Below are positions 25,236-58,573 of a stretch of DNA of 64,000 nucleotides, piece after piece. Position 1 is the first letter of the stretch; every line of letters starts with the position of its first letter. The notes beneath the pieces were generated by a model that ran no database searches, was not told where the DNA came from, and saw only the letters and a list, made by a program, of their open reading frames with translations. The stretch lies in IMG/VR virus record IMGVR_UViG_3300035520_001075, positions 32,001 through 96,000 of that record. One strand, 5' to 3'. The position numbers and the translations under genes were made by a program. The stretch comes from a virus (taxonomy: Duplodnaviria; Caudoviricetes).

Positions 25236-25270
25236 AAAGAGAGTAGAAAATTAATTCTACTCTCTTTTTT
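25236..25270. terminator. Bidirectional terminator where the two gene blocks converge
   Basis: AAAAGAGAGTAGAA-AATTAA-TTCTACTCTCTTTTT, flanked by A and T tracts. Confidence 0.8.
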
Positions 25271-25994
25271 AGAACTCAATTATTTGTTGTGAAGAATTCT
25301 CATAAACTGCCCATCTTCCTATTAGTATTGCATCTGCAGTATCATTATCAACGCTAATATCATAATACTTTTTAACTTTAAGTTGTGCATTTACTTTCTT
25401 ATCGTTTCTTGTTTTACCTTTAATTTCATTATAAGCCCTCCAAGTCGCTGAAGAAACTACTTTATAAGGCATTCCAATTTCATAAAGATAATTTTTAAGA
25501 ACTCCTTGTAAATGAGCAAGTTTTTTAAAAGTAATAACTCCTTCTGAATTCTCTCCAAATTTTTGAAGTTGAATATCTTCAAGTATAACTAAATCAGGGC
25601 CATATTTTTCTATTTGAGAAATAAACCAGTATTTAGTCTAAGCAATTCTTTCTGTACTGCGGCTTCCGTTAGAACTCCATTTACCATGCCCAATTAAATT
25701 TCCGTCTTCAAACAAAGACCAGCCGCTTGTAATAGAAGCTTGGTCAAAAGCAAGAATTCTAAAGCCATTTTTCTTAGAGGGAGTATGAACTCCTTGAAAG
25801 TATGGATTGGTTTTACAAGTTGGACACTGATAATTTTTTCTACGAAATTTTTCTAAAGAACAGAAACAAATATGACCTTCTGGGCATTTTATTTCCAAAT
25901 CTGATTTTAAGTTAGAATATTCGGTTGACAGTAATTGCCAACCGTTTTTTTCTACCTCTTCTCTTATCTCTTTTATATCAATTTTCTTTCCCAA
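25269..25994 (-). CDS. ruvC: RuvC-like Holliday junction resolvase with an N-terminal Zn-binding domain (one TAG)
   Basis: ORFs 25638..25994 and 25269..25472 are in frame across TAG 25640-25638. Motifs ILAFDQASITSGW, PDLVILEDIQ and DNDTADAILIG. N-terminal CPEGH and CPTC. Confidence 0.82.
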
Positions 25995-25996
25995 GA

Positions 25997-26788
25997 TTAT
26001 TCTCCGCTACTTCCAAAGCCGCCTTCTCCTCTATCAGTATCATCAAGTTCTTCAACTTCTTCCCAAGTAATCATTGGAGATTTAGCGAGAATTAACTGGG
26101 CAATTCTGTCTCCTTTATTAATTATCTGAGAAAGATTTCCAGTATTTTCCATTATAATTCCAACCTCTCCACGGTATGCACTATCAATTGTTCCCGTAGA
26201 ATTGGCAATTCTAAGAGAAGTTTTAAGTGAAAGTCCTGAACGAGGACGTACCTGAATTTCATAGCCTACTGGAATGGCAATCTTAATTCCTGTTTTAATA
26301 ACCTGCGTTGTATGAGGTTTAAGAGTTGTTGTTTCCAAAGCAAATACGTCAGCACCAGCATCACTGTCATGAGCGTACTTAGGAATTATAGCATCTTCAC
26401 TAAGCTTCTGAATTTTTATTTTAACTTTTTCTCTTGGATTTTTATAAAGGTCATAGATTGAAAGAACTGTATTTTCAATTATAAGGCTGAGAAATTCTTT
26501 TTTATTATCAGAAATACTATCATCTTTTTTAATTTCTTCCAAGAAGTCCTTAATTCCTTTTGACTCTTCTTCAAAATTCTTAATTGGATTTGTTTCAAGA
26601 GTTTTAAGTATTTCGTCCTGAAAAGCTTTTGAGCTAAACACATCAAGTATCTTTTCTTTAAAAGAAGGATACATTGCATCAAACTGTTCATCAGGTAGTT
26701 CCAGAATCTGAGTAAACTGTTCCGCTGTATCTGCATTACTATTCTTTTCTAAAATTTCACTAATCTGTTCTTTAATTTCTTTATTCAT
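25997..26788 (-). CDS. dut: Trimeric dUTPase with a roughly 120-aa N-terminal helical extension
   Basis: Motifs AGADV, RPRSGLS, GTIDSAYRGE, RIAQL and RGEGGFGSSG. Probable start ATG 26788. Confidence 0.9.
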   Translation of the reverse strand: MNKEIKEQISEILEKNSNADTAEQFTQILELPDEQFDAMYPSFKEKILDVFSSKAFQDEILKTLETNPIKNFEEESKGIKDFLEEIKKDDSISDNKKEFLSLIIENTVLSIYDLYKNPREKVKIKIQKLSEDAIIPKYAHDSDAGADVFALETTTLKPHTTQVIKTGIKIAIPVGYEIQVRPRSGLSLKTSLRIANSTGTIDSAYRGEVGIIMENTGNLSQIINKGDRIAQLILAKSPMITWEEVEELDDTDRGEGGFGSSGE

Positions 26789-27560
26789 TATTATCTTCAC
26801 TCCTATTTTCTTCAATTATTATTTCTTCATTTTCTTCTTCAAACAAATCATCAATTGTATTAATAACTTTATCAATGACTCCAAAATTTAAAGCTTCTGT
26901 GCAATTAAGACACCAGTCGTCTTTAAAATGCTTATCATATTCTTCTGCACTAATCTTTGTATGATTTATCGTCACGCTTTTTAAACTATCAAGTTGTGCT
27001 CTATAAAAATCAACTCTTTGGAGAAATTTATGAGCATCACCCATATCTCCTGAAGAACCCTCATGGAAGAGGAAAGTACTATAAGGAAAAGCAAATCTCT
27101 TAGTTCCGCAAATTCCAATAAAGAAGCCGCCACTATAACTTGTTCCAGTTGTTATTGTATAAATTGGCGTTGTCGACGTTTCCATTGCTCCTATTATACT
27201 GAATACTGCTTCAAGTTCTCCGCCTGGCGAGTTAATAAACATTTTAATTGGCACTCTTGCTTCTTTTGGAATATTGTTAATATTATCAATTCTATTCCAA
27301 AAATAAATTAATTCTGTTATCTGATTTGCCATTAGAGAAGTAATTTCTTCTGATACATAAAGATGTCTTTCATAGAAATCAAATGTTCCTATCGTAGCTT
27401 CTACATCTACTTGTTTATCAGGATTTGTTAGTTCATCAAGAATATCTTCGCCGCAACTCATACAAGCTTTATCATAGAAATTCTCAACTGTTTGTAGAAA
27501 TTCTTCTTTTGTTTTCATCGTTCCATCATCATTATAAATTGTAATTAGTTCTTCATTCAT
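26781..27560 (-). CDS. clpP: ClpP-like protease
   Basis: PIKMFINSPGG, catalytic Ser in SYSGG, His in FLFHE, C-terminal EALNFGVID. Confidence 0.85.
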   Translation of the reverse strand: MNEELITIYNDDGTMKTKEEFLQTVENFYDKACMSCGEDILDELTNPDKQVDVEATIGTFDFYERHLYVSEEITSLMANQITELIYFWNRIDNINNIPKEARVPIKMFINSPGGELEAVFSIIGAMETSTTPIYTITTGTSYSGGFFIGICGTKRFAFPYSTFLFHEGSSGDMGDAHKFLQRVDFYRAQLDSLKSVTINHTKISAEEYDKHFKDDWCLNCTEALNFGVIDKVINTIDDLFEEENEEIIIEENRSEDNNE

Positions 27561-27738
27561 TCATTAAATCCTCCAAATGTGATTTTTCTTTTTCTAAGAA
27601 TACTATTTCGTCAATGAGTTCGCTTAATCTTGGATTTAAAACAAAAATATCAAGCTTAATTTTTTCAAGTTCATTTTTTCTTTCTTTAAGGTCAAAGCAA
27701 GTTTTATCATAAACTGATTTAATATCTTCACTACCCAT
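27553..27738 (-). CDS. Small coiled-coil hypothetical protein
   Basis: RBS AAGGAGG precedes ATG 27738, just downstream of a promoter. Confidence 0.65.
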   Translation of the reverse strand: MGSEDIKSVYDKTCFDLKERKNELEKIKLDIFVLNPRLSELIDEIVFLEKEKSHLEDLMNE

Positions 27739-27773: not shown

Positions 27774-27802
27774 ATTATAACACAATTTGTATTAAAAGTC
27801 AA
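27774..27802 (-). promoter_or_regulatory. SigmaA-type early promoter
   Basis: TTGACT-17-TATAAT, followed by TATTATAGTAAATGAGA. Confidence 0.8.
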
Positions 27803-28744: not shown

Positions 28745-31700
28745 TTATTCATCAATTTCTATTCTTTCTATTGCACTTGACTTAATATAGCCATTTTCGT
28801 CAATCTCTTCTATTTTTTCAAAGAGCGGCCATTCTGTATTTTTATATTTCTTTGGAACAAAAGTGTCTCCACGTCTTATTCCTGTTATAATTAATTTTGT
28901 ACCTTTTGTAAACCAAGACTTTTCAATAACGTGTTTTACTCCGTTATTATCTCTTTGAGAAATTTGTTTATCCCAAACAGCGTATTGATTCTTCCAAATT
29001 TTTACTGTGATAACTGAACCGTCTACTGTAAGAAGAATAATTTGACTTTTATTTTTATCTTTGTCAATTACCGTTCCTGCTATTCTATTTAATTGGAAAA
29101 TATTAATTTCAGTTCCTTCTTTTGTTTCAAATGAACGTTCAATTTCTGGCTCTGGATTTAAACAGCTAAAATTTGAGATTCCATAGGCATTATATTTAAT
29201 TTTTGCTAATTCATGTGGGTGATAGTAAAAGCTAAGGCTTTCCATTTCCCACTGGGATATTGAGCCGCCTGCATACTTTTGATAGGTTTCGTCCAATAAT
29301 GAAGAATTGAGTTTGTTGAGAATTTCTTCTTGATTATCCTTAAACCATTCTCTTATTTTATCCATTCCTTTTTTATAGATATTATCCCAAATATTTTGCT
29401 TAATTGATGCACTTTGATTATTGCCAACATTAACATCTTCTAATAAACTATCATCATAATTTTCATTAAAGAAATTTAAAGCAATCTCATCTAGAATATA
29501 ATATTGACCTTTCTTAAAAGATTTTAAGTACTTATTAAAATTAAATAATCTTTTTTCATAATCAAACTCTTGCGGTAAAAGATTTTTATCAATTAACATC
29601 TGCATATTTTGTAAGGTAATTCTTTTCTTTTTATCACTAACAGTATCTAAATATTTCTCCATTATTTTAACTCTATTGCCATTATAGAGATTATCAAAAG
29701 CTCCCGACTTAATTAAACTAATCATTTGGATTTTATTAATTTTTACTTTGGATAGAAAGTCTTCTAAAGAAGTGTAAGGTCTGTTATCAAAAATTTCATA
29801 AACTAATTGAGTCCCAATTCTTGTGATACCTTTCATTCCATAAATTATCGCATTATCTTTTATTGAAGGAATGAATATTAAATCTGATTTATTTATATCT
29901 GGTGGGAGAACTTTAATTCCTTTTGAGATTGATTCACCTATTGCTGCGGCGATTTTGCCATAATTAACAGTTTTATTCCTTTTCTTTTCATCATTATCTT
30001 CATCATTAAAATCAGATTCTAATAAATCTGAACCACCTGCGTTGACTATTAAACAAGCACAATTCCAATAAATTTCAGGAAAATTTGTTGCTAAGTATAA
30101 GGTTTGAATGCCTACAAACGAATAAGCCAAACCATGCGTATGAAATATAAAATTTCATTACTGACTATTTTTTAAACGTTTTACAATGATGACTAATTCA
30201 TTAACGTTTACACTATTTCCAGTTATGTATCAATAATAACTGTACTTCTCATCTCACTGAGAATAGTCGATACAATATTTTTAAGACAGAGTACCTAAGA
30301 TTTTTTGATTTTTTTCTTTATTTTTGTTTAGAGGATAATATAAATTTTTATCAACCCTACTTTTACCACTATTAATTTTTTTTATAGTTGAATAACAAAT
30401 ATTATATTTTTTAGAAATCTCTAATAAAGTCATATTTGAAAAAATAATATCATATTTACATTTTTTTGACCAACTATCTTTACTCCTATCATATAAGGGA
30501 TAATTATTATTTGGGTTAAACCATTTATCTCCTTTATTAATCTGAGATAAATAACTTCGTGAGATATGATATTCTTTTGCTATTTCAGTTAAAGAACGAG
30601 AAGTCTTTAGTTCTTCAATTATTTTTTCTTTTAATTCTTTACTATATTTTCTACTTTTTGAACCTTTTAATAAAGGATAATTTAAGTCTTCTCTTTTAAA
30701 ATTCCAACCAGTATTGATATTTTGAAGAAAACTATCTTTTAAAAAGGGATATTTTTTCTGAATTTCAAAATATTGATATTTTTCACATAACATTCTCTGA
30801 ATGTCTCTAACTTGTTCTTCATTTAAAATTTTTGACGCTTTACAACATTCTTCAAAAGTTTTCTTTGGCTTCGCGCAACCATCACCACCAACTGTAAGAT
30901 TATATCCATTTTGTGTGGTTAATGTCTTAAAATAATCTATAAAGAATATTTCTCTTTCATTTAAATAATCTCTACCCATTTCATCAGGAATTTCTTCTAT
31001 AATTTCAAATTTAAAATTTTCCCATCCATATTTTCTAATTGCATTATGAAAAGGGAGTTTATAACTATGACTTTTAGTATTATAACTATCTGATTTATGG
31101 CCTCTTTTTCTTTTTTCAATATTGTTAGTTTGGCCTATATATGATTTGGAATTTATTTTATTAGTAAATTTATATATATAAAGCATAATTTCACCTCCTT
31201 TTCTTAGTTAAATTTAGTCTGTCTTAAATTTATCACGAGATTTTACCCTCGTTAGCCATATAATTTATCTTTAGTCCTCAGATAAAATATTTTATATAAC
31301 CTCATTGATAAAATGATTAAGTGTATTAACCCCATTACAAGGTTTTGCAAACGCGTATGACATTTGAGGCATCATAACTGTTTCCCAAACATATTCTCCC
31401 ATCGCTACAGTCGGGCATTGAGAAATAAATTTTTTTCTTAATTCTGGAACTTTTTTTACTTGTTTTTTGGAGACAATTTTTCTGGCTACATTTGATTCGG
31501 CTAAAGTAAAATGTGCTACATTTTTATCCATACAAATTAACATCAAATCCTCTTGGCTAGCTGGTACACCAAAATTAGGAAGATAATATGGTTCTAATAT
31601 CTTTATTTCTTCTTCTGTTAATCCAGCATCTCTTACTTCTTGATACCATAAATCCATATTGTTTTTTAATCTACAATATCTGTCGAGAGGACGTTCTTTT

Positions 31701-33868
31701 CCTTTTTCACCCATTAATCTCATCAAGCAATTTGCAGAAGTTAATTGAGTTGGATTAATTGGTTTAATTTTTTTTGCAGTATCTAAGCCAACTCCTGTTG
31801 AAAATTGAAATACATCTAAAACAGAGCCTGCGGCCAAAGCGTTCCAAAGTTTTTCGTCTTTTGTGTTTAAAACTGCTGGGTGAAGATATTTATTGTAAAT
31901 TTGTCTTAATGTTAACTCTTTTTCAAAATAATTATCTTTTTGTAAAAGCTCAATACAAGTTGTAATTTTATTACAAACTTCCGTCACCAAAAAGTCAAAC
32001 TTGGTATCACCCATTTTATCTGAATCATGGAGTTCAAATTGAGTAGTTAAATCTCCGTTTGGACTTCTCATTAAGGCATTAGTATCAAATGGAGAATTAT
32101 TATACATCATTACTCCTGATGCGTGTTGACCTCGGCGGCAGACTAATCCTTCAATTGATTCTATTATTTCTAAAAGACCAGGATATTTATCAAGTTCGTT
32201 GACTAAAGCTTGAATTGGCTTCCAATCTTTTTCTTCATTTCCATAAACTGAATCATGAACTGAACGTAAAAAACCTCTTTCAACAGGAATTAAACTACTT
32301 AAATATTGAGTTGTTTCAACTTCCAATCCATTTGGAAATTCTTTACTTCGATAACCTCTCCCTGCCGCCGCAATTGCACTACGTGTGCCTTCTGTTCCAA
32401 ATGTAGCAACTTGAACTACATTTAATTCTCCTCGCTCTTTTCTAATTTCTTCAAAGATTTTTTTGCGTTTTGTTGGCGTTAAATCTATGTCGATATCAGG
32501 CAATTCCACTCTTTCTTTATTTAAAAATCTAAAGTAAGGTAGCTCCCATTCAATAGGGTCTAATTGAGTAATACCTAACAAATAATTTGAAAGATAGCAA
32601 ACAGAGCTTCCTCTTCCTGGTCCAACGATTGAGCCACAATCCCAGAATAAATCTATATAATGTTGAAAAGTATTGAAATACTCAAAAAGACAATTACCTA
32701 ATTTTTCGCCAACTGTTTTTATTACATCAGCTTCAATTTCAATTCTTTCTATATAATTATCTTTTACTAAATTTTTATTATATAAACCTTCTAAACATTG
32801 ATTAATCCAATATCTTTCTTGATTATTTCCTTTTAATAAAGAAGTTATTATTGGATATTTTGACAAATTTATATCTTGATATTGGATTTGAATTGGATAT
32901 TCTTTAACCCTAACTTGTGGAATAATTGGATTATGATATAAATTATAACTCTCAATTTTGCCGTAAATTTCCATTGTATTACTACATATCTGTTTGAATT
33001 CATTTTCAGAATAGAAGTCTTTTAAGTTTTCATATGCTTCATTATTATCCATCATATGAGCGTCCCAATAAAATTCATCAACCTCTCTTTCACCCTCTTT
33101 TGAATTAAGATAAGCTTTATGAATTGGGCGTTCTTTTGCTGTTAAATAATGAGCATCAGACCCTATTATTATTTTTAAATTATATGCTTTTGCAATTGAT
33201 TTAATTCTTTGATTAAAAAGCCTTTGGTCTTTTGAACTTCCTGCAGCAATTTCAAGATAGAAATCATCATGAAATAAATTAATGTTCCATTTAATAAAAT
33301 CATCAATTTTTAATTTAATTGAGTAAATTTCATCTTCATTATTCTCTTTTTCTTCCGCTTTGATTAATTGCAAAACTAAATTATCTAATTCTGACCCTAA
33401 GCACGCACTTGAAGCTACTAATGAATTTGGATATTTTTTAATAATTTCTTCTAATTCATTCTTTTGAGTAGGAACTCTTGTCATTCCCCTTGAATTATAA
33501 CTATAATACCATGCTTTAGAACTTAATTCCCTTAAAGCTCTATGTCCCTGATTATTTTTAGCTATTAAAATATAGTGCCAATATCTTTCAATATTATACC
33601 TATCGTCAACTAAATAAATTTCATTTCCTAAAGCAACTTTAAAATCTTCTGGAAGTTTATTCTCTTTTTTTAATTGTTCTTCTGTTTGAAGCATTTTAAG
33701 ATGGCCGCAAAGGCATTCATGGTCTGTAAGAGTCAAACCTTTCATACCCAGATTATATGCTGTAGTGAGCATATCTGGTAGTTTATTGATTGCATCAATT
33801 AGACGGATATTTGAATATTCACTATGACAATGATTATCAAAACGAGGAACTAAATTTAAATTACTCAT
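28745..33868 (-). CDS. dnaE: DNA polymerase III alpha subunit (spliced, about 1300 aa)
   Basis: PHP motifs HCHSEYS and LTDHE, plus GPGRGS, PDIDID and GQHASG. Exons 33868-31340 and 30136-28745 join as SYAFAKP|HGLAYS. Confidence 0.92.
30137..31339 (-). mobile_element. Group I intron in dnaE carrying a GIY-YIG gene
   Basis: P1: exon AACCT pairs with GGGTT. P10 ATG pairs with exon CAT. R GTATCGACTA and S AAAATAGTCAG. Terminal G at 30137. Confidence 0.85.
30281..31186 (-). CDS. GIY-YIG homing endonuclease (intron-encoded)
   Basis: YIYKFTNKINSKSYIGQT, LNEREIFFI and GYN motifs, with repeated C-terminal HTH-like units. RBS GGAGG. Confidence 0.88.
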   Translation of the reverse strand: MLYIYKFTNKINSKSYIGQTNNIEKRKRGHKSDSYNTKSHSYKLPFHNAIRKYGWENFKFEIIEEIPDEMGRDYLNEREIFFIDYFKTLTTQNGYNLTVGGDGCAKPKKTFEECCKASKILNEEQVRDIQRMLCEKYQYFEIQKKYPFLKDSFLQNINTGWNFKREDLNYPLLKGSKSRKYSKELKEKIIEELKTSRSLTEIAKEYHISRSYLSQINKGDKWFNPNNNYPLYDRSKDSWSKKCKYDIIFSNMTLLEISKKYNICYSTIKKINSGKSRVDKNLYYPLNKNKEKNQKILGTLS

Positions 33869-33899
33869 AATTTCCTCCTTTTCCTTATTTTCTATATTT

Positions 33900-33928
33900 A
33901 TTATATCATAATTTAAAAGAAAAGTCAA
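33900..33928 (-). promoter_or_regulatory. SigmaA-type promoter of dnaE
   Basis: TTGACT-17-TATAAT with TG. 27 bp are identical to the promoter at 35529-35555. Confidence 0.8.
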
Positions 33929-34911
33929 ATATTATTTAACTTATTATATGCCATTGTTAAAATTTGATAGGCTTCTATAAAGCCAATTCTTTTTCTATTG
34001 TTATCTCGATAATTTGTTAAGCAGATATTATAAGTTGATTTTCTAAAATCATTTAAAATTTGATTGGCTTCCTTAATTAATTCCTTTTGAAAATCTTCAG
34101 AAAGTTTTTCTTTATAAGCAATTGTAGCCAAATTTCTGTCAGTTTGTTTGCCTATGATAGTATTTGTACTATAATAAAAATTAATTTTTTCATTTCTTTT
34201 ATCAATACACATAACATTAATATTTGTTGCTTGGCTTTTATTGTTTTCTATTACTCTTGAAAATATAGGCTCTGTTTGATTTAATTCATAAAAAAAATCG
34301 CCGCCAATTCTATAATCGTATAATTCTTCTAATGACAGCATTGTTTCTTTAATTTCGTTATCTCCATAAAGAAAAGTTTTTATAAGATTAGAATTATTAT
34401 TTTCTCTTCTTTTAAAAACAAAACTACAGACATTGTAATTAGTTTTTTCAAACATTGAATCGAAATAAATATTAAGTCTTTGTACTGAAAAATTTTTAAA
34501 GAAAAGTTTTCTGATATTTTTAGATTTTTCGTCTGCAAAAAAATTGATTGGAATTATTAAGATGCCGCCACAGCATTCTAACATTGTATTGATTGCTATT
34601 TTATATAAATCATCAAAATTATTATTAATAAAATATTTTTTATCTTTAGCTTTGTTTTTGGCTAAATAAGGTGGGTTCGTTATAACCCATTTATTTCTAT
34701 AATCTGGCGGATTTAATAAGGTATCTCTATAATGCTCTGATTCCTTACTAAAAGAAATATCGTAGTATTCTTTGATTTTTATATCCCTTACCATATCGCC
34801 CCTTCCATAAAAAGGTTCGATAATATAGGCATCATTAGGAATAAAATCTAATAAGCCATCTAATAATAGACTATTTATCGAGTAATGTTTTGTTTTTTCT
34901 ATATCAGTCAA
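33925..34911 (-). CDS. Amino (N6-A/N4-C) DNA methyltransferase
   Basis: Motif I IIEPFYGRGD followed by motif IV VITNPPY, and DDLYK. Confidence 0.75.
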   Translation of the reverse strand: MTDIEKTKHYSINSLLLDGLLDFIPNDAYIIEPFYGRGDMVRDIKIKEYYDISFSKESEHYRDTLLNPPDYRNKWVITNPPYLAKNKAKDKKYFINNNFDDLYKIAINTMLECCGGILIIPINFFADEKSKNIRKLFFKNFSVQRLNIYFDSMFEKTNYNVCSFVFKRRENNNSNLIKTFLYGDNEIKETMLSLEELYDYRIGGDFFYELNQTEPIFSRVIENNKSQATNINVMCIDKRNEKINFYYSTNTIIGKQTDRNLATIAYKEKLSEDFQKELIKEANQILNDFRKSTYNICLTNYRDNNRKRIGFIEAYQILTMAYNKLNNI

Positions 34912-35494: not shown

Positions 35495-35526
35495 TTTAAA
35501 ATTTTCCTTTCTTATCTATTATTAAT

Positions 35527-35570: not shown

Positions 35571-35578
35571 ATTCTCTT

Positions 35579-49900: not shown

Positions 49901-50235
49901 AAATTAATTCCCACGGGATTAGCATAGAAACCCTTAGCTTTCCCCGTTAGCTTTTACACCCTCATTACTGAGAAAAGGTATAACAGGCAATATTATTTAC
50001 CATGTGGACTGAACATCATTGCTGCTGATTTTGTAGCTGTGGCTTTTCTTCTTTTGTTCTTAAAAGTATTCTTATTTTTATACTGAGCGTATAAAATAAA
50101 ACGTGCTCCTGTTTTTAATCCATCTCTTGCATCTGGTAATGCTCTTGTTTGAATTACATACGATGCATAAGGAACATAAAAATTAGGAAGAGCATCAGAT
50201 ACTTCTAATTCTCCATCTATAACAATTTCTCTCAT
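46940..50235 (-). CDS. gyrA: Type IIA topoisomerase subunit A (gyrase A-like; spliced, 795 aa)
   Basis: RALPDARDGLK in exon 50235-49999, joining exon 49090-46940 as SPHG|DASIY. Catalytic AADRY, PDF-like IDFPTGG, and C-terminal beta-pinwheel repeats. Confidence 0.9.
49091..49998 (-). mobile_element. Group I intron in gyrA carrying a GIY-YIG gene
   Basis: GCTAACGGGG...AATCCCGTGGG before the ORF, GTACAGACTA and AAGATATAGTC after it. Terminal G at 49091. Removal restores PHGD. Confidence 0.85.
49208..49864 (-). CDS. GIY-YIG homing endonuclease (intron-encoded)
   Basis: MVGIYKITNLLNNMVYIGSS and LYN motifs, with a C-terminal HTH. RBS AAGGAGG. Confidence 0.88.
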   Translation of the reverse strand: MVGIYKITNLLNNMVYIGSSSHIEDRKEYHFRFGKTYNDKRINKLYNDMYTFGIDNFTFEILCECKLSELEEKEQEEINKYDKNLLYNTVKKVCKVARGEKASRAKLSEEQVLEIYKLLKENILSDREIAKRYNICFNAISEINHGITYKHENMSYPIRVFKQKGARRIFSDDEVKQYREEYNNNGHQSKILYDKYNIQCSYSAFRQMLTRKTYKEIN

Positions 50236-50265
50236 ATAATCACTCCTTTTTTTTACTATATATTT

Positions 50266-50294
50266 ATTATATCATAATTATAACAAAAAGTCAA
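50266..50294 (-). promoter_or_regulatory. SigmaA-type promoter of gyrA
   Basis: TTGACT-17-TATAAT. Confidence 0.75.
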
Positions 50295-50297
50295 ATA

Positions 50298-52393
50298 TTA
50301 ATCAAGGGCATCAAAGTCTGCATTTTTACTAATATATTTTTTACGTTCTTCAATATTTTCTCCGAGCAATACATCAAAATAATAATTTGCTTTTTCCGCA
50401 TCTTCAAAACTAAAAGGAATATATCTGCCTTTTTCTGAGAAAAGTGTATTCTTAAAATCTTCTGGTTCAAGCTCACCAATTCCTTTTGCTCTTAAAATAT
50501 CACCATCTGGCAATGATTCAAGTTCTTTTTCTGTATACGCATAATAAATTTTATTCTGCTTAGTGGTGACTTTAAACAATGGTGTTTGTCCCCAAAATAT
50601 CTTTTTTTGTCTTAATAATTCTGGATAATATTTATACATAAAAGCCAGTAGCAAACACATGATTGAGTAACCATCTTCGTCTGCGTCGCATACAAAGACA
50701 ATTCTTCCATATCTCATTTTTTTCATATTAAAATTATGATTAAAGCCTGCTCCAATAGCAGTATGAAGATTTTTTAAAACTTCATTTGAGAATTGCTCAT
50801 CTTCTGTACTTTTTAATACATTAAGGATTTTACCAGTTAATGGAAAGGCGGCTGTATAATCACTATTTCTTGATTTTACTATGCCTCCAAGGGCTGACAA
50901 TCCCTCCACTACGATTAGTTGAGATTTTTCATCATGATATCTACAGTCAGCAAGTTTACCAGCTAAAACAGTCTTCTTTCTTAATTCTTTACTGATTTCA
51001 CTATCTTGCTTTAAAGCATTTTCTCTTGCTCTATCCGCTGCTTTTTCAGCCTTCTCAAATCTACTCATCATCTCAATAATATTACTACATTCTGGAATTC
51101 TTGAAAATTCTTCTAAGCCCTCTTTTAGAGCTTTAGTCGTTAGAGTTCCTAAAGAAGGATTTAAAATATTATTTTTTGTTTGATTAGAAAATGAAGGCTC
51201 TCTAACCTTACAATTAATAGCATAAACCAATCCTCGTCTTATTGATTCTGGAGAAAAAGATTGATTACTAATTTTCTTAATTGAATTTGTAAAAGTTCTT
51301 TTTGCCGCAGTTATAGGAGAGCCGCCAGAGCAACAATAGAGTCCATTTGCAAAAACATAACTATTTTCTGTTCCACCTGTCCAAAGAAAAGCAACTTCTA
51401 CTTCATCAATTCCATCAGTAGCGGAACAAATAATTGGCTTTTTCATTAAAGGCTTCTTTGCAATATCTACTATGAAATCTGCAATTCCATGTTCTGAATA
51501 GAATTCTTTTTTCTTTATTTCTTTATTATTATCATCAACTGCAGTAATATTAAAATAAATACCTTTATTGAGATAAGCAATGTTCTTAATTTCATCACAA
51601 ATTCTATCAAAAGAAAAATTCTCTGTGGTATTAATAAAGACTTCACTATCTGGTTTAAAAGTAATTGTAGTACCAGTTGGAAGAGTTGTTGACTCTTCTT
51701 TATATTCCATTAGTATACCTTGTTTAAATTTTGCTGTCGCCGCCGTCCCATCTCGTCTACTTTGAACAGTAAACTCATAAGAAGACATACAAACAGCTGT
51801 TCCTCCAATCTTACTATTCAGCAATACTCATTAATTTATTGCTCGTTAATAACCGCTTATAGTTTCCTATAAGAATAGACTATATCTTCTGTGGATTCTT
51901 TTTCGAGTTATTTAACTCTACTCTACTTTGATATTATTGATATCATTTCGATAGTCGTTGAACATTCCCCAACTTGTTATTACAGGGGCTTTGCTGCTGA
52001 TTCTCTTTTAAGAGTTCCAGCAATTAAAAATCTTTTATAACGGCTATGGTATTAACCGTTTAAACCACTACTATTTTTATAAGAATTTTTATCAAATTTA
52101 CCGCCAGTATGGGCTTCTGTAAAAATAGCAACAAGAGTATTATGTCCATTTTCGCAAGAGAATGGAATTCCACGTCCTTCATCTGTTATGCTAACATATC
52201 CGCTATTTTCATTAATCTGGATATCAATTTTATTTCCATATCCAGCCAAAGCTTCATCAGTAGAGTTATTAATAATTTCTTTTAAAGCTTGATACATTCC
52301 TTCTAAATCTGCACTGCCTAAATACATAGGAATCTTTTCTCGCATTGCTTCACGAGTATCAAGATGTCTAATACTATCTGCATTATAACTCAA
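50298..52393 (-). CDS. gyrB: Type IIA topoisomerase subunit B (gyrase B-like; spliced, 616 aa)
   Basis: EIINNSTDE, DEGRGIP and HTGGKF in exon 52393-52055, joining exon 51809-50298 as SGLNG|IGG. TOPRIM motifs VEGLSA, PLTGKILN and DADEDG. Confidence 0.9.
51810..52054 (-). mobile_element. Group I intron in gyrB (no ORF, 245 nt)
   Basis: P1: exon AACGGT pairs with GCCGTT. Core AATTGCTGG, AATCAGCAGC, GTTCAACGACTA and AAGATATAGTCT. Terminal G at 51810. Confidence 0.87.
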
Positions 52394-52425
52394 TTAACTT
52401 CACTCCTTTTTTATTTTCTATTATA

Positions 52426-52470
52426 ATTATATCACAATCTAAATAAAAAGTCAAGATTTTTAATCTTGAC
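52426..52470 (-). promoter_or_regulatory. Terminator hairpin fused to the gyrB promoter
   Basis: GTCAAGATT-AAA-AATCTTGAC-TTTTT, with TTGACT-17-TATAAT. Confidence 0.75.
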
Positions 52471-52474
52471 CATT

Positions 52475-53002
52475 TTAATCTTCTATTAATTCTTTAAAAA
52501 TTAAATCTTTAGGTAAAAAATCTTTACAAACATAAATACTTGCAAAACTAATTCCTTTTAAAACCTCTTTAGTTTCCCAATCGTTAAAAAAGTTAATTCT
52601 TTTATCAAAAATTAGTGCTTGACAGCCTTCTAAATATTTAAACCTTTTTCTCCCTTGTAATGAAGAAAGCGGCAATAAAATAGCGAAAGGCTTATTTAAT
52701 TCATATAATCTTCTAAGCACTTCATCTTTTAGAGAAAACGGAGCATTAGAGATAATACAGTCATATTCCTCCTCGGGCTCATATTTAAAGAAATCTTGTC
52801 CATTATCAATATGAGAATTAATAACCTTAAATCCTTTTGCCCTTAAAAGTTGAACATACTCACTTTGCTCCATATCAAAAGGACACCAAATTACAGAATT
52901 GGGCTTAATATATTCTATAATTGGTTTAACCGCATATGCAGGAGTATATTGTTCATCAGATTCTTTGGTTCTTTCTCTTTTTATATAACCCACATTAGCC
53001 AT
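52475..53002 (-). CDS. Small phage adenine methyltransferase-like protein
   Basis: Motifs SDEQYTP, IWCPFD, GQDFF, and ISNAPFS (NPPF variant). Confidence 0.65.
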   Translation of the reverse strand: MANVGYIKRERTKESDEQYTPAYAVKPIIEYIKPNSVIWCPFDMEQSEYVQLLRAKGFKVINSHIDNGQDFFKYEPEEEYDCIISNAPFSLKDEVLRRLYELNKPFAILLPLSSLQGRKRFKYLEGCQALIFDKRINFFNDWETKEVLKGISFASIYVCKDFLPKDLIFKELIED

Positions 53003-53556
53003 TAATCTTCTCCTTTCTCCTTGAAATACTCATCACTTATGAAATACTCATCACTTATATTAAAATAGCCAATTACATCTCTACTTTCATTTATTATAGG
53101 GTGAATGGCTTTCTGATTAGTGCTGCCTCGATAGTCTAATCCTTTAGTCGGCTTTGTTTTATCATATCTACCCTCAATTAATATACTTATAATTGATAAC
53201 AAATGCATATATTTTTCTTTACCCCAAATTTCTTTTAAAGTATATCCAGTATAAACAATTATAGTAATGCCAGGAACATTCTTATAAATCTGTCTACATA
53301 ATTTAATAGTATCGTCTATATTTTTTGGATGCAAGGGGTCGCCGCCGCTTAGTACAAAATTTTTAATATGAGTGTTTTTTAAAGATTCAATAATTTCTTG
53401 GATTTTATCTTGTGTTAATTCTTTCCCACTATCAAAACTCCAAGTTTCCTTATTAAAACAATCTTCACAATGATGCTCACAACCGCTAATCCAAAGAACT
53501 GTTGATAGTCCTCTGGCATTTGCAGTATCAAAATAATTAATTTTTTGATAGTTCAT
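53002..53556 (-). CDS. nrdG: Anaerobic ribonucleotide reductase activase
   Basis: Radical SAM motif GCEHHCEDCFN, plus LSGGDPL, VYTGY and RGSTNQ. Confidence 0.9.
   Translation of the reverse strand: MNYQKINYFDTANARGLSTVLWISGCEHHCEDCFNKETWSFDSGKELTQDKIQEIIESLKNTHIKNFVLSGGDPLHPKNIDDTIKLCRQIYKNVPGITIIVYTGYTLKEIWGKEKYMHLLSIISILIEGRYDKTKPTKGLDYRGSTNQKAIHPIINESRDVIGYFNISDEYFISDEYFKEKGED
53023..53058. repeat. Perfect 18-bp tandem duplication (ISDEYF twice) near the nrdG 3' end
   Basis: GAAATACTCATCACTTAT occurs twice in tandem. Confidence 0.9.
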
Positions 53557-53986
53557 TCTTATTCACCTTTAATTTCTTATTTCTTTCATAAATGTTTTCA
53601 TTGTTTTCCGCCCATAAAATATCTCTTTTATCTGGATAAAGACGTGCATCATCATCAAATAAAGTTCTCCATCTATCATCAAGAAAATATTCTAGCTGAT
53701 AGATTTTTCTTTTTAAAATGTAGATTTTATTTGGGTCAGTTTCTTCTTCTAAACAACGATTATAATACTCATAATCTCTTTCAATAATTGCTGGTAGATT
53801 TTTATCAAATACCTTGTGATTTTTTGCTAAGTACTTGGAATCCTTTAATATCTTGTTCCAAAATTTTACACCAAATGGACTATCATAATCATGAATTCGC
53901 TGGTTTTCCTTTACCAAATTTTTAATTACGTTCTTACGAACACGCTTAACTGGCTTCTTCGGGCCTTTCTTTTTCTGCTGTTCCAT
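53537..53986 (-). CDS. Basic hypothetical protein
   Basis: RBS AAGGAGG, 149 aa. Confidence 0.7.
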   Translation of the reverse strand: MEQQKKKGPKKPVKRVRKNVIKNLVKENQRIHDYDSPFGVKFWNKILKDSKYLAKNHKVFDKNLPAIIERDYEYYNRCLEEETDPNKIYILKRKIYQLEYFLDDRWRTLFDDDARLYPDKRDILWAENNENIYERNKKLKVNKNELSKN

Positions 53987-54202
53987 TTTAATTTCCTCCT
54001 TAGTTTTTATTTTATTATATCATATTTTAAATAAAAAATTAAGTTATTTTATTATATTCCTCTTTATAATTTTTTAATTTATTAAAAACTCTACTTTTGT
54101 CTGTCTTTATGAATTGTGATATACGTAGGACTAACATTCCTTAAATCTTTTTTTTAAAAATTAAGTAAAAGATATATAATCTTTTACTATCTTTTTTATT
54201 GA

Positions 54203-54553
54203 TTAAAATAAAAGATTATTAAAAAAAAGAAATAAATGTGCTGTATTTTTCATTGTAATTTCAAATATTTCTCCTTCAGAACCTATGCCAGTTTGAAGAA
54301 GAATAGAATAGTCTGGCTTGCTTTTATCAAATCCTAAATTTGACTCATAAAAAATTTTATTCAAATAAGGAACTATACTTTTTTTACTATAATCCTCTCT
54401 TTCTTCTTGCGATGTAAAATAATCAGAATATTTTACTGGAGAAAAAGTTAAATAATATCCCAAAAATTCTATTAGTTCCTTTCTCTTTTGTTCATTTTCC
54501 TCTTCAAGAATATCATTAAATATCCTATCAAATTCAAAATAATTATACAACAA
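54203..54553 (-). CDS. Hypothetical protein
   Basis: RBS AAGGAGG, TTG start, own promoter at 54587-54615 (TTGACT-17-TATAAT). Confidence 0.6.
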   Translation of the reverse strand: MLYNYFEFDRIFNDILEEENEQKRKELIEFLGYYLTFSPVKYSDYFTSQEEREDYSKKSIVPYLNKIFYESNLGFDKSKPDYSILLQTGIGSEGEIFEITMKNTAHLFLFFNNLLF

Positions 54554-54621
54554 TTCAGTTTCCTCCTTAGTTTTTATTATACTAATATTATATCATAACT
54601 TTAATAAAAAGTCAAATATTA

Positions 54622-55038
54622 TTAAATCTCTATTTGAAAGTCTTCATATCCTTTTACTTCTTTTGGACTTTTACTAATTAATTCCTTTAAATTAATTATT
54701 TCTGGTCTACTAAGTCCGCCTGCATTACACATCGGAATGGCTATTTCTTTGAAATAATCATCATCATCAATTTCATTATCCCATAGCATCAGGTGGCTGC
54801 GAAATCCTCTTGCATTCAAAGCTTCATATGAAAGAATTTGAAGCCTATTTTCTGAATATTTATAAATAAATTGTGAAACTTGTTCACAACGTTGAGTCAA
54901 AACATATTCTTTTTCAAGATAACTTTTAGTTTGTTTTACTCTTTGTAAATTTTTACAGACTATAGCTAAATTATAACCAATATTATGATGATATGATAGT
55001 AGTAAGTCTACTATCATATCAATTTTTTTATCTTTCAT
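54622..55038 (-). CDS. Hypothetical protein
   Basis: Starts 3 nt after the spliced nrdD stop, 138 aa. Confidence 0.65.
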   Translation of the reverse strand: MKDKKIDMIVDLLLSYHHNIGYNLAIVCKNLQRVKQTKSYLEKEYVLTQRCEQVSQFIYKYSENRLQILSYEALNARGFRSHLMLWDNEIDDDDYFKEIAIPMCNAGGLSRPEIINLKELISKSPKEVKGYEDFQIEI

Positions 55039-55040
55039 TT

Positions 55041-58000
55041 TTAATTTTCCTCAAAATTTAAATGTTTACATCTAAAATAAACGTCTTCTGACCTTCCTCT
55101 ATTCGGCGTGTAATTACTAATATCATTACTACCCTCAGTTTCCCGATATTTATTAGGGTTTAGACTATACCTTCATTATTATAATAATGTCGCTATTATA
55201 GTCGTTGAACGTCTCTCCTTTTCTTAAAAAGGAGATTTCGCTGCGTTTGGTTATCCAATCCTTAATGATTTTACTATACCAATCCCATTACTGATTGCCA
55301 TTATAATATTACTATTATAATTTAGTTATTAAGGCTCTAAGGACTTTCCCGCAGTTTAAGCGATTTAAAGTGACCTATTAGTTAAGCCACATATTCTATA
55401 GCTTGTTCTAACTTTTTCTGGGTCTTTTTCTCCACATTTTGGACATTGCCAGCGAATAGTTCCATCTTCCACCAAAATCTTCTTAAAATCATACCCTTCA
55501 AAGCCACAGGTCTTGCAGGAAGAAATTTCTGAGTTAATTTCTGAATATAAACAATTTTCTCCAATAAAATTAATTATTTGTAAAATTCCTTCGATATTAT
55601 TGCTCATATTAGGAACTTCCACATATGAGATTGAACCCGATGTGGTTTTATCGCTAAATTGTTCTTCATCTAAAAGTTTTGTAAAAGCATCTACTTTATC
55701 TCTTACGTGATGATGATAAGAATTAGTAAGAAAATGACTCTGAGTTCCATCGCCAATTTGACCAAAATTCTTAATACAAGCTTCTGCAAAATCATCTGTT
55801 GTTGATTCCATCATTTAATACCCTCGGTTTCCCGATATTTATTAAGGGGATTAGACTATATCTTCTTCCTTTAAAAAGGAAGCTCTACATTTCGATTTTT
55901 TGATATTATCTCATCTACATTTCGCCCTATTATTAAGCCTACTCGGTTCAGTTTTATAACTGCCTTTCCCTAGTCGTTAGACTTTTATTATTTTACTTAT
56001 TTACTTGATACTTTTAAAATTCTATTTTGTCATTTTATTTTTACTTCTTTTTTTTGTATTATTAATCATAAATAAGTAAAATAAATTTAGTACGGTATTA
56101 CCTCTATCCAAAGGACTTAGGCTCTCTTACCAGCTTATTATTAGTATTCAGCTATGACCGTTTAGTAGAGTTCGCATTAACAATTACTCATTAATGCCCC
56201 ATGTATATCTAGGAGTCCCATATAATCCTGCGGCAAGACCTGTTGTGGCTGTCAACTCGTCGTTCCTCTGATTCATATAATCAATAATTTTATGAGCTAA
56301 TTTATTACCTTTTTCACCGAATTGGTCTTCATCACAAATATAATAAACAGCTTCTCGCAGGCCCGCATAGCCCAAAGAAATTGAAAAATATTGATTATAC
56401 ACATATTTTTCAAGAGTCTCTTCTGGGTCAAGTCTTAGAATTCCGCCGTAAACAAAATGAAGAGGATTATCTTTTGCTTTTATTTTAGCTATATGATTAG
56501 CTCTCCATAACATATCTCTTTGAGCAATGTCAATATAATGAGATAAATTTTCAAATAATATTTTTTCGTCTTTATTAGGATTATTTTCCATTGCAATATA
56601 CGGAAGATTTAATGTCTGAACGCCGAGGTTTCCACGTCCAAAAACCACGTAATTACCATCTTCGTCTTGCCATGGATTTAACATACTTCTACACGTATTA
56701 TCCTTTATCGCTAAAGGTACTGACTATATTATCTATCACTTTTGATAGTCTTCTGCTTCGAGAAAAATCTCTACTCGGCTACATTCATCACCGATAGTCG
56801 ATACACCTATTAATTGGCACGGTCTCAACAATTAATGCCCTAACCGTTTTCAAAAGATTTTAAATGGGCTATAGTATTCGCTTACCCATTGGACAAGTTG
56901 GAACTTTTTTAAGCTCTCTATGTTTTTTAACACTTAAATAATCTGGAACTAATCTTTTAGCGCTACATTCTGCACAAAGCTTAGTAGTATTATAATATTT
57001 TCCGCCTTCCATAGTATTTTTATCAAGAAAATATAGAATTTTTGGAAAATTAGGATTTAAATAAGTTCCATCTTCTTGTCGCATTCCCTGTATTCTTTGT
57101 CTAATCATTTCTTCAAAAACAAGAATTAAATCTTCAGAATATTCTTCATCTTCACTAAGCCAACAACCAACACTTAAAAAGGCCGCCTGACCAGTTCCCG
57201 AACAAAGAGTATTTGTTTGATACAAGAATGTTTGAATTCCATCTTTAATTTCTTTCTTTAGTCTTTTTTCAGTAATTCTATTAATATCTTTTTCATTAGC
57301 AATTCCAACAGATTCTAACTCTTCAGCGACTTCTTTTTTAATTTTTTCTCTGCTAACACGAACAAATTTTGCTAAATGAAGTAAATTAATCGTTATACCT
57401 CCATATTGCGAGCTTGTTGCATGGGTCAGAGCCTGACTTGCTACTGTACAAGCTGTTTTAAAAGATTTTGGAGTTTCAATATAAATTCCATTAATATTAC
57501 AACCTTTAAACATCTCTTCTAAATTCCAATTGCAGCAGTTAAACATGGCTCGGGCACTATAAGAAAAATCATGGAATTTAACCACGCATCTATCATGAGC
57601 ATCTAAACAATCTTTTGGTAGTAATTTTCTCATCATTTCTTTACTTGGAATTTCCGCAAGATAGGCATTTTTAATATGAACTAAATGAGGATTTTTATTA
57701 CCATTTTCATGCTCAATTTCTGGATTAACATAAAGAACTTTCTCAATTTCTGTGGGGTTCTTTATTGCTCTCTCCTTATCCATCTTATAAGCACTATATT
57801 CTCTTGCTACATCTGGAACTTCACTATAGAGAACGCTCATAACAAAATTTTCAATTCTTTCAACTTCAATTTCATCCTTCTTATTATTTTTGGCTTCTTT
57901 CTGTACCAAAATGTTAACTACATTAACCAAATCATTAATTTTATTAAAGTCTGGATAACCAATCTGATTCCAAGCTTGAGTTATTGCGTGCTGAATTTTA

Positions 58001-58044
58001 GTATCATCATAATCAAATTTTCCAGTTTTCTTTATTACTATCAT
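55041..58044 (-). CDS. nrdD: Anaerobic ribonucleoside-triphosphate reductase (spliced, 717 aa)
   Basis: ATP-cone N-terminus, NCC and SSQYGG. Exons 58044-56884, 56693-56211, 55811-55385 and 55123-55041 give PMG|CRS, YGTP|MES and the glycyl-radical motif RICG-Y-IS (split within the Tyr codon). Confidence 0.92.
55124..55384 (-). mobile_element. Group I intron nrdD-I3 (no ORF, 261 nt)
   Basis: P1: exon GTGGCT pairs with GGTCAC. R GTTCAACGACTA and S AAGGTATAGTCT. Terminal G at 55124. Confidence 0.87.
55812..56210 (-). mobile_element. Group I intron nrdD-I2 (399 nt)
   Basis: P10 CAT pairs with exon ATG. R GTCTAACGACTA and S AAGATATAGTCT. Terminal G at 55812. Confidence 0.83.
56694..56883 (-). mobile_element. 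Group I intron nrdD-I1 (no ORF, only 190 nt)
   Basis: P1: exon ATGGGT pairs with GCCCAT. R GTATCGACTA and S AATATAGTCAG. Terminal G at 56694. Removal restores MG|CRS. Confidence 0.85.
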
Positions 58045-58077
58045 TCTGAAAACCTCCTTTTCATTTACTTTACTATA

Positions 58078-58121
58078 ATTATATCACAAATAATAGAAAA
58101 AGTCAAGAGATACTCTTGACT
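58078..58121 (-). promoter_or_regulatory. Terminator hairpin fused to the nrdD promoter
   Basis: AGTCAAGAG-TAT-CTCTTGACT-TTTT, with TTGACT-17-TATAAT. Confidence 0.78.
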
Positions 58122-58129
58122 TAATCTTT

Positions 58130-58573
58130 TTAAAATTCTTCCCATTCTTCCATATTTTGTGTTATTGTTTTTACATAAGAATTTCCATTAAGACGGGTAT
58201 ATCTTTCATATAAAGAAAGCCAGTCCTATTTGGCTCGTGTTGGAATTCGTTTTTCATCCTTATAAGCGACATACAGAGTAGTAATCTCGTGTCTTAACAT
58301 TACCAAATCATTTTGATTCTGAGCATTTAGCTGTCCCTTAATGTCATCTAAAACAGCCTTAATATCACTCATATCCTTATTAATCTGATTAGTATTCTCG
58401 CCTTCTTTAATTCCTCTTTCCTCATACGCTTCTGCGGCGGCCTCTTTGGCTATTTTCTTAATCCAATCTCTTGGCTTTTTAAAAACCATCCCCCATAATG
58501 CCGCTAAAGTAATAATTGCTCCAGCCGCTCCGCCAATTGTTTTTAGTATTTCTAAAAAATCTAACCAACTCAT
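58130..58573 (-). CDS. Putative holin-like membrane protein (one TAG)
   Basis: N-terminal hydrophobic helix IGGAAGAIITLAALWGMVF, then a coiled coil and LRHEITTLY. After TAG 58228-58226 the frame continues LYERYTRLNGNSYV...EEF to TAA, a C-terminal pattern typical of Firmicutes phage holin-like proteins. Confidence 0.6.

Follow-up and report, generated by a model that had tools for sequence, protein, structure and literature searches.

TAG, read as glutamine in this phage, has probably been purged from genes that are needed early, and translation of a RuvC-like Holliday junction resolvase and a few other genes would be delayed until a suppressor tRNA acts. The window (the whole 64,000-nucleotide stretch analysed) is part of a 157-kb, circular-looking phage genome, nearest by DnaE and portal, at a distance, to siphophages of the SPbeta, Enterococcus EF1 and Phass-1 type; its host is probably a Firmicute of the class Clostridia. 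Its recoded relatives share the partition of TAG between genes, whereas the codons concerned differ in position. The features discussed are collected in Table 1.

Table 1. Positions of the features discussed, in window coordinates unless marked as genome
Feature	Position	Strand	Basis or remark
Terminator-like hairpin, 14-bp stem and T run	25235..25268	-	directly 3' of the RuvC stop; closes the - strand array
RuvC-like Holliday junction resolvase, 241 aa, N-terminal Zn-finger domain	25269..25994	-	translation, PHROG
dUTPase-domain protein	25997-26815	-	Pfam dUTPase, 1e-29; no TAG here
ClpP-family protease	26781-27560	-	Pfam CLP_protease, 3e-25; no TAG here
69-aa ORF	27553-27762	-	no TAG here
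Host-type promoter, sigma-A-like, extended -10	27774..27802	-	11/12 consensus match plus TG
Conserved gene, 312 aa	27792..28730	-	translation; TAG at codon 32 (28637-28635)
TAG-free replication and nucleotide-metabolism genes	28745..58044	-	Pfam, TAG counts
Terminator-like hairpin 3' of the membrane-protein gene	58100..58122	-	shares positions with the -35 element of the early-type promoter of NrdD (58106-58078)
Single-pass membrane protein, 158 aa	58130..58606	-	TAG at codon 127 (58228-58226); PHROG 4105
Neighbour gene p267, 267 aa	58978..59781	-	no TAG here
TAG-free ATP-dependent DNA ligase and small genes upstream	59863..64000	-	Pfam DNA_ligase_A_M
Amidase_2 lysin	genome 104675-105925		about 13 kb from the membrane-protein gene, on the opposite strand
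Candidate suppressor tRNA, CUA anticodon	genome 121450-121589		ARAGORN, found only if a 46-nt anticodon-loop insert is allowed

Genetic code and suppressor tRNA

TAG is read as glutamine in the window phage. In-frame TAGs inside conserved genes align with Gln in relatives, and a likelihood computed over 775 aligned TAGs of these relatives puts Q ahead by over 450 log units. In many of them TAG sits on the invariant RuvC residues Q85, Q142, Q144 and Q204. At codon 127 of the membrane protein, contigs L058-L060 have CAG and L061 has TAG, these contigs being 99% identical. TAG is not used as a terminator: no minus-strand gene of the window ends in it, and the choice of code alters minus-strand 3' ends only in the three TAG-bearing genes and at the boundary between exon 1 of NrdD and its intron.

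The acceptor end of the candidate suppressor tRNA is Gln-like and its variable arm is long; Rfam does not recognise this tRNA. The long arm prompted serine as a candidate meaning of TAG, which is ruled out by the alignment likelihood in relatives and by the CAG/TAG polymorphism of the window genome. Two early-type promoters, recognised as consensus matches, precede the tRNA, so that a 'late' gene may simply be one translated once the tRNA is mature. Any delay imposed by the suppressor may be short, or it may depend on removal of the 46-nt insert.

Scarcity of TAG in the minus-strand block

Within the minus-strand block (window 25269-64000), 3 of 340 Gln-type codons are TAG (0.9%). The share is 9.9% in the plus-strand virion block and 6.7% in the other plus-strand block, and the depletion relative to the virion block is highly significant (Fisher P = 2e-9). 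An earlier note on this DNA had listed three exceptions with a single TAG each and had described the other replication genes of this strand as free of in-frame TAG. The TAG counts confirm both points: there are exactly three credible in-frame TAGs, one per TAG-bearing gene, lying where that note had placed them (codon 119 of RuvC, 25640-25638; the others in Table 1). The comparison with Gln codon counts that it had proposed as a check argues against a random distribution, since 23.6 TAGs would be expected at the genome-wide rate (binomial P = 7e-8). By reading frame, the genes of the block hold 3 TAGs in frame, 293 in frame 2 and 214 in frame 3. TAG-prone families, defined from the relatives alone, account for 10% of the block's Gln-type codons and carry all three TAGs (P about 0.001), which supports the view that the trio is no random draw.

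The TAG-free set between 28745 and 58044 comprises DnaE, a methyltransferase-like protein, RecJ, a primase-like Toprim protein, a DnaB-like helicase, PhoH/PIN, AAA_24, GyrA, GyrB, NrdG and NrdD. Several of these genes are split by group I introns, one of which Rfam locates at 44648-44876; DnaE has two exons and a GIY-YIG gene, RecJ two exons and NrdD three. In the ligase segment, early-type promoters are found as consensus matches at 61920 and 63089. Four small minus-strand ORFs with TAG (35579-35764, 37669-37854, 58694-58864 and 61000-61212) were rejected as intronic or non-coding, of low complexity, devoid of ribosome-binding sites or overlapping an upstream gene, and the TAG-gaining 5' extensions of ORFs 33925, 39978 and 46940 were discarded on the same grounds. 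A sense reading of the NrdD 'TAG' at 56869 was likewise dismissed, this being the exon 1/intron boundary.

It is very improbable that the pattern is due to chance, or that the TAGs are true stops marking truncated genes, pseudogenes or two-product genes. Such stops would agree with the single TAG per gene in the window genome, and the standard code would give a 118-aa Zn-finger fragment of RuvC. However, chance is contradicted by the depletion and placement statistics, and each TAG falls within a real gene, PHROG and homolog alignments crossing those of RuvC and the membrane protein. Residues past each TAG are conserved, among them E139, D218 and D221 of RuvC and, in the membrane protein, an invariant motif at the C-terminus. 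Moreover, the TAG positions of RuvC in relatives span codon 12 to codon 240, so no defined truncated product is conserved.

The earlier note had also equated TAG-free genes with early genes translated in the host code. This equation fails, since four large virion genes lack TAG as well, as do those for the portal and the putative capsid; TAG content thus also tracks another factor, which is probably expression level. In the TAG-free virion genes, glutamine is nearly always written CAG (for example 0 CAA and 12 CAG, 0 and 14, 2 and 27). Expression level by itself, with TAG decoded less efficiently than CAG and avoided in abundantly translated genes regardless of timing, is nevertheless an improbable account of the whole distribution. 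The nearly pure CAG usage of the portal gene, the gene for the putative capsid and several large genes of the virion, all without TAG, is a sign of the translational selection that it invokes, whereas the TAG-free replication genes are mostly CAA (237 versus 100 CAG) and lack that signature. Nor would one expect DnaE and ligase to outnumber tail proteins.

TAG usage in recoded relatives

The relatives were found by alignment queries, as single-sequence scans of viral contigs gave near-identical copies only. They form 18 independent recoded lineages, the window phage's own lineage being excluded, and were compared over about 20 kb each of genomes of 150-190 kb. RuvC carries TAG in 17 of the 18, and 37% of its Gln positions are spelled TAG, which places the resolvase among the most TAG-rich gene families tested, together with the membrane protein (TM158; 39%). 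This share is higher than in DnaE (0-1%; Wilcoxon P = 3e-4, n = 18), higher than in the adjacent dUTPase and ClpP genes (0.09-0.10; P = 3e-4, n = 18) and higher than in late genes on the tail side at the same loci (P = 0.027, n = 18). The 312-aa gene, with a share of 20%, also exceeds DnaE (P = 0.003) and shows no difference from the late genes; p267 reaches 0.28. The values are 0 for ligase, 0-0.05 for NrdD, 0.01-0.02 for gyrase and near 0 for NrdG.

The positions themselves are another matter. Whether they are conserved in related phages was a check suggested by the earlier note, and they turn out to vary: codon 119 of RuvC is CAA or CAG in 24 loci and TAG in 6, and codon 127 of the membrane protein differs between near-identical strains, as described above. 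Because one of the three TAGs is thus replaced by CAG in such strains, an individual TAG is dispensable.

These data bear on an explanation by constraint only, according to which TAG is a nearly neutral Gln synonym arising through CAG-to-TAG transitions, tolerated where the product can wait until the suppressor is working and removed only from genes whose products are required immediately. We consider this possible, if rather unlikely. It would account for the free variation of TAG positions among lineages and for the CAG/TAG polymorphism between 99%-identical contigs. It is also in keeping with a 312-aa gene that stays at the late-gene level without rising above it, and with the intermediate values of dUTPase and ClpP, which suggest a gradient rather than a switch. 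Against it stand the TAG share of RuvC, which at the same loci surpasses even that of late genes, and the sharp jump from dUTPase to RuvC inside one operon. Constraint would still imply that the products of TAG genes are not needed early, and so differs from the preferred explanation, a translational delay of the TAG genes, on adaptiveness alone.

The resolvase and its operon

The RuvC-like protein matches the Holliday junction resolvase families PHROG 827, 159 and 1770 (E 3e-16 to 2e-9), in an alignment that spans the TAG. Pfam yields only a weak DUF3882 match; PF02075 is carried by one homolog in a precomputed list, and a profile search against solved structures gives no meaningful match. 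D84, E139 and D218 never vary among 42 homologs, and D221 is conserved in at least 90% of them; from their motif likeness to RuvC we take these four residues to be catalytic. Codon 119 lies between D84 and the other three, and the TAG does separate the first catalytic Asp from the remaining acidic residues, as had been noticed earlier.

The gene stands at the boundary of the replication and virion modules, as the last member of an operon in which a promoter is followed by the 69-aa ORF, ClpP, dUTPase, RuvC and a terminator. The promoter belongs to a family with 64 copies in the genome by consensus scan, against 2.6 in shuffled sequences. The members of this family stand in front of TAG-free genes, are nearly missing from the 57-kb virion block and are presumably early, judging from sequence and location. 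Inspection by eye of the sequences before the virion genes reveals no late-promoter motif. Of 19 recoded lineages, 16 keep the promoter of the RuvC operon at a distance of about 1.7-1.8 kb before RuvC. Because RuvC shares this promoter with the TAG-free ClpP and dUTPase genes, any discrimination between them would act at translation; a promoter common to RuvC and low-TAG genes thus fits a translational gate.

The 312-aa gene and the membrane protein

The C-terminal exon of DnaE is followed, at a distance of 14 nt, by the 312-aa gene, which has a strong Shine-Dalgarno sequence (AAGGAGG) 7 nt before its ATG at 28730. The 31 residues preceding its TAG are conserved, and full-length homologs keep the N-terminus. 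A representative library holds 355 relatives, many of them fragments. Neither the protein nor ten distant homologs match Pfam or PHROG, and Foldseek finds nothing in the PDB at E <= 0.001. The AF2 model (pLDDT 82) weakly resembles a flavodoxin-like plus radical-SAM-barrel arrangement (Z 7-7.8). A B12/radical-SAM enzyme was considered and rejected, since a common arrangement can give VIA-align scores of this size and the protein has no Cys motif.

The membrane protein has one transmembrane segment (about residues 20-41 by TM scan) and a conserved helical C-terminal domain. Homologs invariably keep Q127, the residue spelled TAG here, and conservation extends over the 31 residues after it. The protein had been called holin-like. 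This label finds no support among holin families, none of which the protein matches, and the genes for lysis are elsewhere. Its gene lies between those of ligase and NrdD, away from the endolysin, and the lysin is preceded by holin-type genes, namely a multi-pass membrane protein (three hydrophobic segments, 2 TAGs) and a 1-TM protein (1 TAG). No Pfam family is found, and the matching PHROGs, 4105 and 1009, are both annotated as 'unknown function'. A low-confidence model (pLDDT 64) hits 'Holin protein' entries of BFVD at E 0.02-1 over 70-100 columns of simple generic helices. The consensus scan detects no early-type promoter before p267 or the membrane-protein gene.

A proposed translational delay

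In the mechanism that we favour, selection would exclude TAG from genes translated by unmodified host machinery, namely DnaE, helicase, primase, gyrase, ligase and the ribonucleotide reductase (RNR). A minority in the same leftward array (RuvC, the 312-aa gene, the membrane protein and, in relatives, p267) carries TAG at the level of tail genes. Since RuvC ends a conserved operon, its mRNA is probably made together with TAG-free messages. Full-length resolvase would then appear only once charged suppressor tRNA outcompetes the host release factor 1, and the branch-cutting nuclease would thereby be held back until replication is under way. We infer here both the actual timing of the TAG genes and that their TAGs were selected for delay rather than merely tolerated.

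The earlier proposal of TAG as a timing gate survives in part. The TAG genes are a non-random set, they hold late-level TAG in relatives, and RuvC shares its promoter with low-TAG genes; on the other hand, TAG-free does not equal early, the positions are unconserved and the suppressor tRNA lies behind early-type promoters. A bolder version, which we put somewhat below an even chance, would make the resolvase the preferentially recoded gene, its amber codons a selected, purely translational lock during recombination-dependent replication, and the 312-aa gene, the membrane protein and p267 further locked genes whose products are late or harmful to the host.

A single transcription unit mixing standard-code and amber-dependent genes offers a clear instance in nature in which control at translation comes apart from control at transcription, a separation that the published timer model (see below) requires but did not demonstrate by experiment. 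The resolvase, the widespread 312-aa gene and the membrane protein offer concrete genes for a direct test of the timer. There is also a warning for annotation: a missing TAG does not mark an early gene, and gene calling in the standard code splits precisely the genes that bear TAG.

Comparison with known systems

The idea of a timing gate is already published, and the window phage fits that model. Borges et al. (bioRxiv 10.1101/2021.08.26.457843) described gut phages of code 15 (TAG to Gln) with replication genes in the standard code and recoded structural and lysis genes, proposed recoding as a translational timer, and reported a recoded intron endonuclease inside an early gene as well as recoded transmembrane proteins. 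Like these phages, the window phage has TAG at Gln positions, its own CUA tRNA, TAG-free replication genes, recoded tail and holin-type genes, and single recoded genes embedded among early ones. Unlike them, it belongs to another lineage, the siphophage one named above, and carries a resolvase of a TAG-rich family within an operon behind a conserved host-type promoter. The papers searched do not name a Holliday junction resolvase among preferentially recoded genes.

Phass-1, of the proposed Phassvirus (PMC10607447; OQ749652), has TAG-to-Gln recoding in 28% of its ORFs, a genome of 136 kb and 36 tRNAs, whereas three tRNA-like genes are found in the window phage. Its CUA suppressor tRNAs measure 72 and 88 nt, the length of the latter suggesting a long variable arm like that of the window phage. 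Homology between the two phages is distant (27% for the portal, 29% for the RuvC-like protein). Unlike that of the window phage, the Phass-1 RuvC-like gene is devoid of TAG, which counts against a resolvase gate.

Phage Holliday junction resolvases such as T4 endonuclease VII, T7 endonuclease I and RuvC-like proteins of Firmicute phages remove branches from DNA ahead of packaging, a role in line with the proposed delay. The window RuvC resembles phage resolvases in its matches to PHROG resolvase families and in its conserved D-E-D-D acidic set, and its gene is found where replication and virion modules meet, as in Enterococcus phages VRE9 and EF1. It differs from T4 endonuclease VII, T7 endonuclease I and the RuvC-like proteins of Firmicute phages by an extra N-terminal Zn-finger domain of ~70 aa, and by the proposed in-frame amber control, which would operate instead of, or besides, promoter timing.

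In-frame TAG codons in the minus-strand block

The window covers positions 32001-96000 of a single contig of 157,483 bp (about 31% G+C) with a 99-bp overlap between its ends. Even the nearest phages with names are only distantly related; by DnaE they are SPbeta and the Enterococcus phages VRE9 and EF1 (about 40% identity), by the portal Phass-1 (27%). Group I introns split several minus-strand genes, namely NrdD (three exons), RecJ, DnaE and AAA_24.

Three minus-strand genes had been named as carrying a single TAG each: the RuvC-like Holliday junction resolvase (RuvC), a conserved gene for a 312-aa protein (unk312) and a membrane protein gene (TM158). All three are recovered at the same coordinates when TAG is read as glutamine. 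Each TAG is within true coding sequence. Codon 119 of RuvC is spanned by resolvase profiles and by 120 full-length homologs. For unk312 the start codon is ATG 28730, with AAGGAGG seven bases before it, and the residues ahead of its TAG are kept in ten homologs. TM158 homologs have an invariant glutamine at the TAG site, and the 31 residues beyond are also conserved. The remaining minus-strand ORFs that gain a TAG under this code were judged artefacts, and the TAG at the end of NrdD exon 1 was rejected as a sense codon, being an intron boundary.

TAG makes up 3 of the 340 Gln-type codons of the block (0.9%; 41 genes counted). In the virion block its share is 9.9%, in the third block 6.7%. The number expected among the 340 codons was about 23.6 (P = 7e-8), so TAG does not follow the random expectation from glutamine counts. 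In the other two frames of the same 41 genes the trinucleotide occurs 293 and 214 times. Chance and true-stop readings of the three TAGs are ruled out by the statistics and by the conservation downstream of each. Among relatives, 775 TAG codons aligned to the proteins of this phage are by far best explained as glutamine (log-likelihood -1764 versus -2223 for lysine). Three 99%-identical contigs have CAG at codon 127 of TM158, where a relative of 69% identity has TAG.

Coordinates of the features considered
Feature	Position	Strand	Remarks
Virion block	genome 1-57.2 kb	+	terminase, portal, tape measure, Dit, tail proteins
Minus-strand block	genome 57.27-96.6 kb = window 25269-64623	-	
Third block	genome 96.7-150 kb	+	
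RuvC	window 25269-25994	-	TAG at codon 119
unk312	window 27792-28730	-	TAG at codon 32
TM158	window 58130-58606	-	158 aa; TAG at codon 127
p267	window 58978-59781	-	267-aa neighbour of TM158
Interrupted genes NrdD, RecJ, DnaE, AAA_24	window 55365-58044, 36560-38381, 28745-33928, 43796-44876	-	
GIY-YIG genes	window 30281-31186, 49208-49864		
Group I intron	window 44648-44876		Rfam
Two further group I introns	1399-1982		Rfam; tape measure region
Early-type promoters, examples	window 27774, 33900, 42402, 50266, 52426, 54587, 58078, 61920, 63089	-	
Early-type promoter, example	window 488	+	
Virion genes without TAG	genome 6936-10951, 13688-23045; window 23558-24457		
tRNA-Gln(UUG), then CUA tRNA	genome 121319-121589 (window-equivalent 89319-89589)		outside window
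Holin-type gene, 152 aa	in genome 103609-105925	+	outside window; multi-pass, three hydrophobic segments; 2 TAG
Holin-type gene, 105 aa	in genome 103609-105925	+	outside window; 1 TM; 1 TAG
Amidase_2 lysin, 416 aa	in genome 103609-105925	+	directly after the holin-type pair; no TAG

TAG use in recoded relatives

Alignment-based scans covered 52 RuvC loci and 23 TM158 loci on contigs of up to 186 kb. TAG shares were obtained per family in recoded lineages by tblastn with code 15 and subsequent codon look-up, loci being clustered at 93% identity. TAG accounts for 0.37 of the Gln-type codons in RuvC, 0.20 in unk312, 0.39 in TM158 and 0.28 in p267. The share is 0.11-0.43 in tail-side late genes, 0.09-0.10 in dUTPase and ClpP, 0-0.05 in NrdD, 0.01-0.02 in gyrase, 0-0.009 in DnaE and 0 in ligase and NrdG. 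In paired tests that left out the phage's own lineage (n = 18), the RuvC share exceeds that of DnaE (Wilcoxon P = 3e-4), of the adjoining dUTPase and ClpP (P = 3e-4) and of the late genes at the respective loci (P = 0.027); that of unk312 likewise exceeds DnaE (P = 0.003).

In the RuvC genes of relatives, TAG occurs at the codons for the invariant residues Q85, Q142, Q144 and Q204, as well as at many variable sites. The earlier note had asked whether its TAG positions are conserved in related phages; since 6 loci have TAG at codon 119 and 24 have CAA/CAG there, it is the set of TAG-bearing genes that is conserved, not the positions. When only relatives are used to define the TAG-prone families, these account for 10.3% of the Gln-type codons of the block in this genome, yet for all three of its TAGs (P about 0.001). 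The RuvC-like gene of the distant recoded phage Phass-1 has no TAG. Evidence from across the family now underlies the TAG observation, which is confirmed.

It had been interpreted as a timing gate, and this is partly supported. We lean towards the view that full-length RuvC, unk312 and TM158 would be made only once the suppressor becomes active, a delay in suppression thereby holding back a branch-cutting nuclease and two unknown proteins. The main alternative, which is less probable, is that TAG is merely tolerated wherever early translation is not needed; selection for the delay is all that separates the two.

Transcription units and the suppressor tRNA

A very uniform sigma-A-like promoter is predicted in 64 copies genome-wide, versus 2.6 in shuffles (-35 TTGACT or TTTACT; extended -10 TRTGNTATAAT). 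Hardly any of these early-type promoters lie outside the minus-strand block and the region at 97-157 kb; the 57-kb virion block has three, two of them in front of HNH or homing endonuclease genes carried by introns. The genes immediately downstream are nearly all without TAG.

One copy (27802-27774) lies just 5' of a 69-aa ORF, ClpP, dUTPase and RuvC, and a predicted 14-bp hairpin terminator directly follows RuvC. In 16 of 19 recoded lineages the same promoter stands ahead of RuvC, at a distance of 1.7-1.8 kb. RuvC is therefore probably co-transcribed with low-TAG genes, the discrimination being made at translation. The unk312 gene starts 14 nt after the last DnaE exon, which would place it in the DnaE transcription unit. 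On one side TM158 and p267 are bounded by the weak hairpin that follows the ligase gene, on the other by a predicted terminator (58122-58100); the genome-wide scan found no early-type promoter of their own. In the 3' arm of this terminator hairpin lies the NrdD promoter's -35 hexamer.

ARAGORN calls the CUA-anticodon tRNA encoded in the genome only with a 46-nt insert permitted in the anticodon loop. The variable arm of this tRNA is long, and its acceptor end is Gln-like (U1-A72, G2, G3, G73). Two early-type promoters, ending at genome positions 121084 and 121275, lie upstream of the tRNA pair; the clock, if one exists, would therefore be accumulation or maturation of the suppressor tRNA, not its late transcription. 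Two odd tRNA-like genes are found beyond the window, at genome 122968-123035 and 123400-123473: the anticodon loop of one, which reaches 48.9 bits against the Rfam tRNA model, is much shortened, and the other is an ARAGORN call with a 6-nt anticodon loop.

The proteins concerned

The label "holin-like" given to TM158 is not supported: no holin profile matches, the lysin is not adjacent, and this protein with one TM helix shares only a generic helical likeness with holin-named entries. The likely lysis cassette is at genome 103609-105925.

The unk312 family is widespread: a representative library yields 355 matches, many being short fragments with the look of gene calls split at TAG. The predicted model of the protein bears a weak likeness to the combination of a flavodoxin-like domain and a radical-SAM-type barrel; the Cys motif is absent.

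Virion genes without TAG

The equation of TAG-free with early is not borne out either, as TAG is also missing from the portal and putative capsid genes and from those of four large virion proteins. Their glutamine codons are almost exclusively CAG (CAA/CAG counts of 0/12, 0/14 and 2/27), while TAG-rich neighbours favour CAA. A subset of the late genes thus seems to be under strong translational selection, and such selection therefore also shapes TAG use. Expression level as the rival explanation accounts for these virion genes but fails on the replication genes, which favour CAA, and we regard it as very improbable.

A sigma-factor-like gene (genome 1106-2293, plus strand, outside the window; PHROG 5767, E 4e-25) contains 5 TAGs in frame. 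Should it direct late transcription, that process would itself depend on amber suppression. A 1256-aa protein (genome 106069-109839, plus strand, outside the window) has 4 TAGs and no family match. Its gene is preceded by an early-like promoter (TTGACT, 17 nt, GATATAAT) and may be a second amber-dependent gene in an early-type transcript.

Comparison with known recoded phages

A full-text search of a limited collection found no mention of a Holliday junction resolvase in recoding papers. Borges et al. (bioRxiv 10.1101/2021.08.26.457843) describe replication genes in standard code and recoded structural and lysis genes; recoding varies within replication modules, and an intron endonuclease in an early gene and transmembrane proteins are recoded. 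The timer hypothesis was put forward there, and the Phass-1 paper (PMC10607447) sums up the same view.
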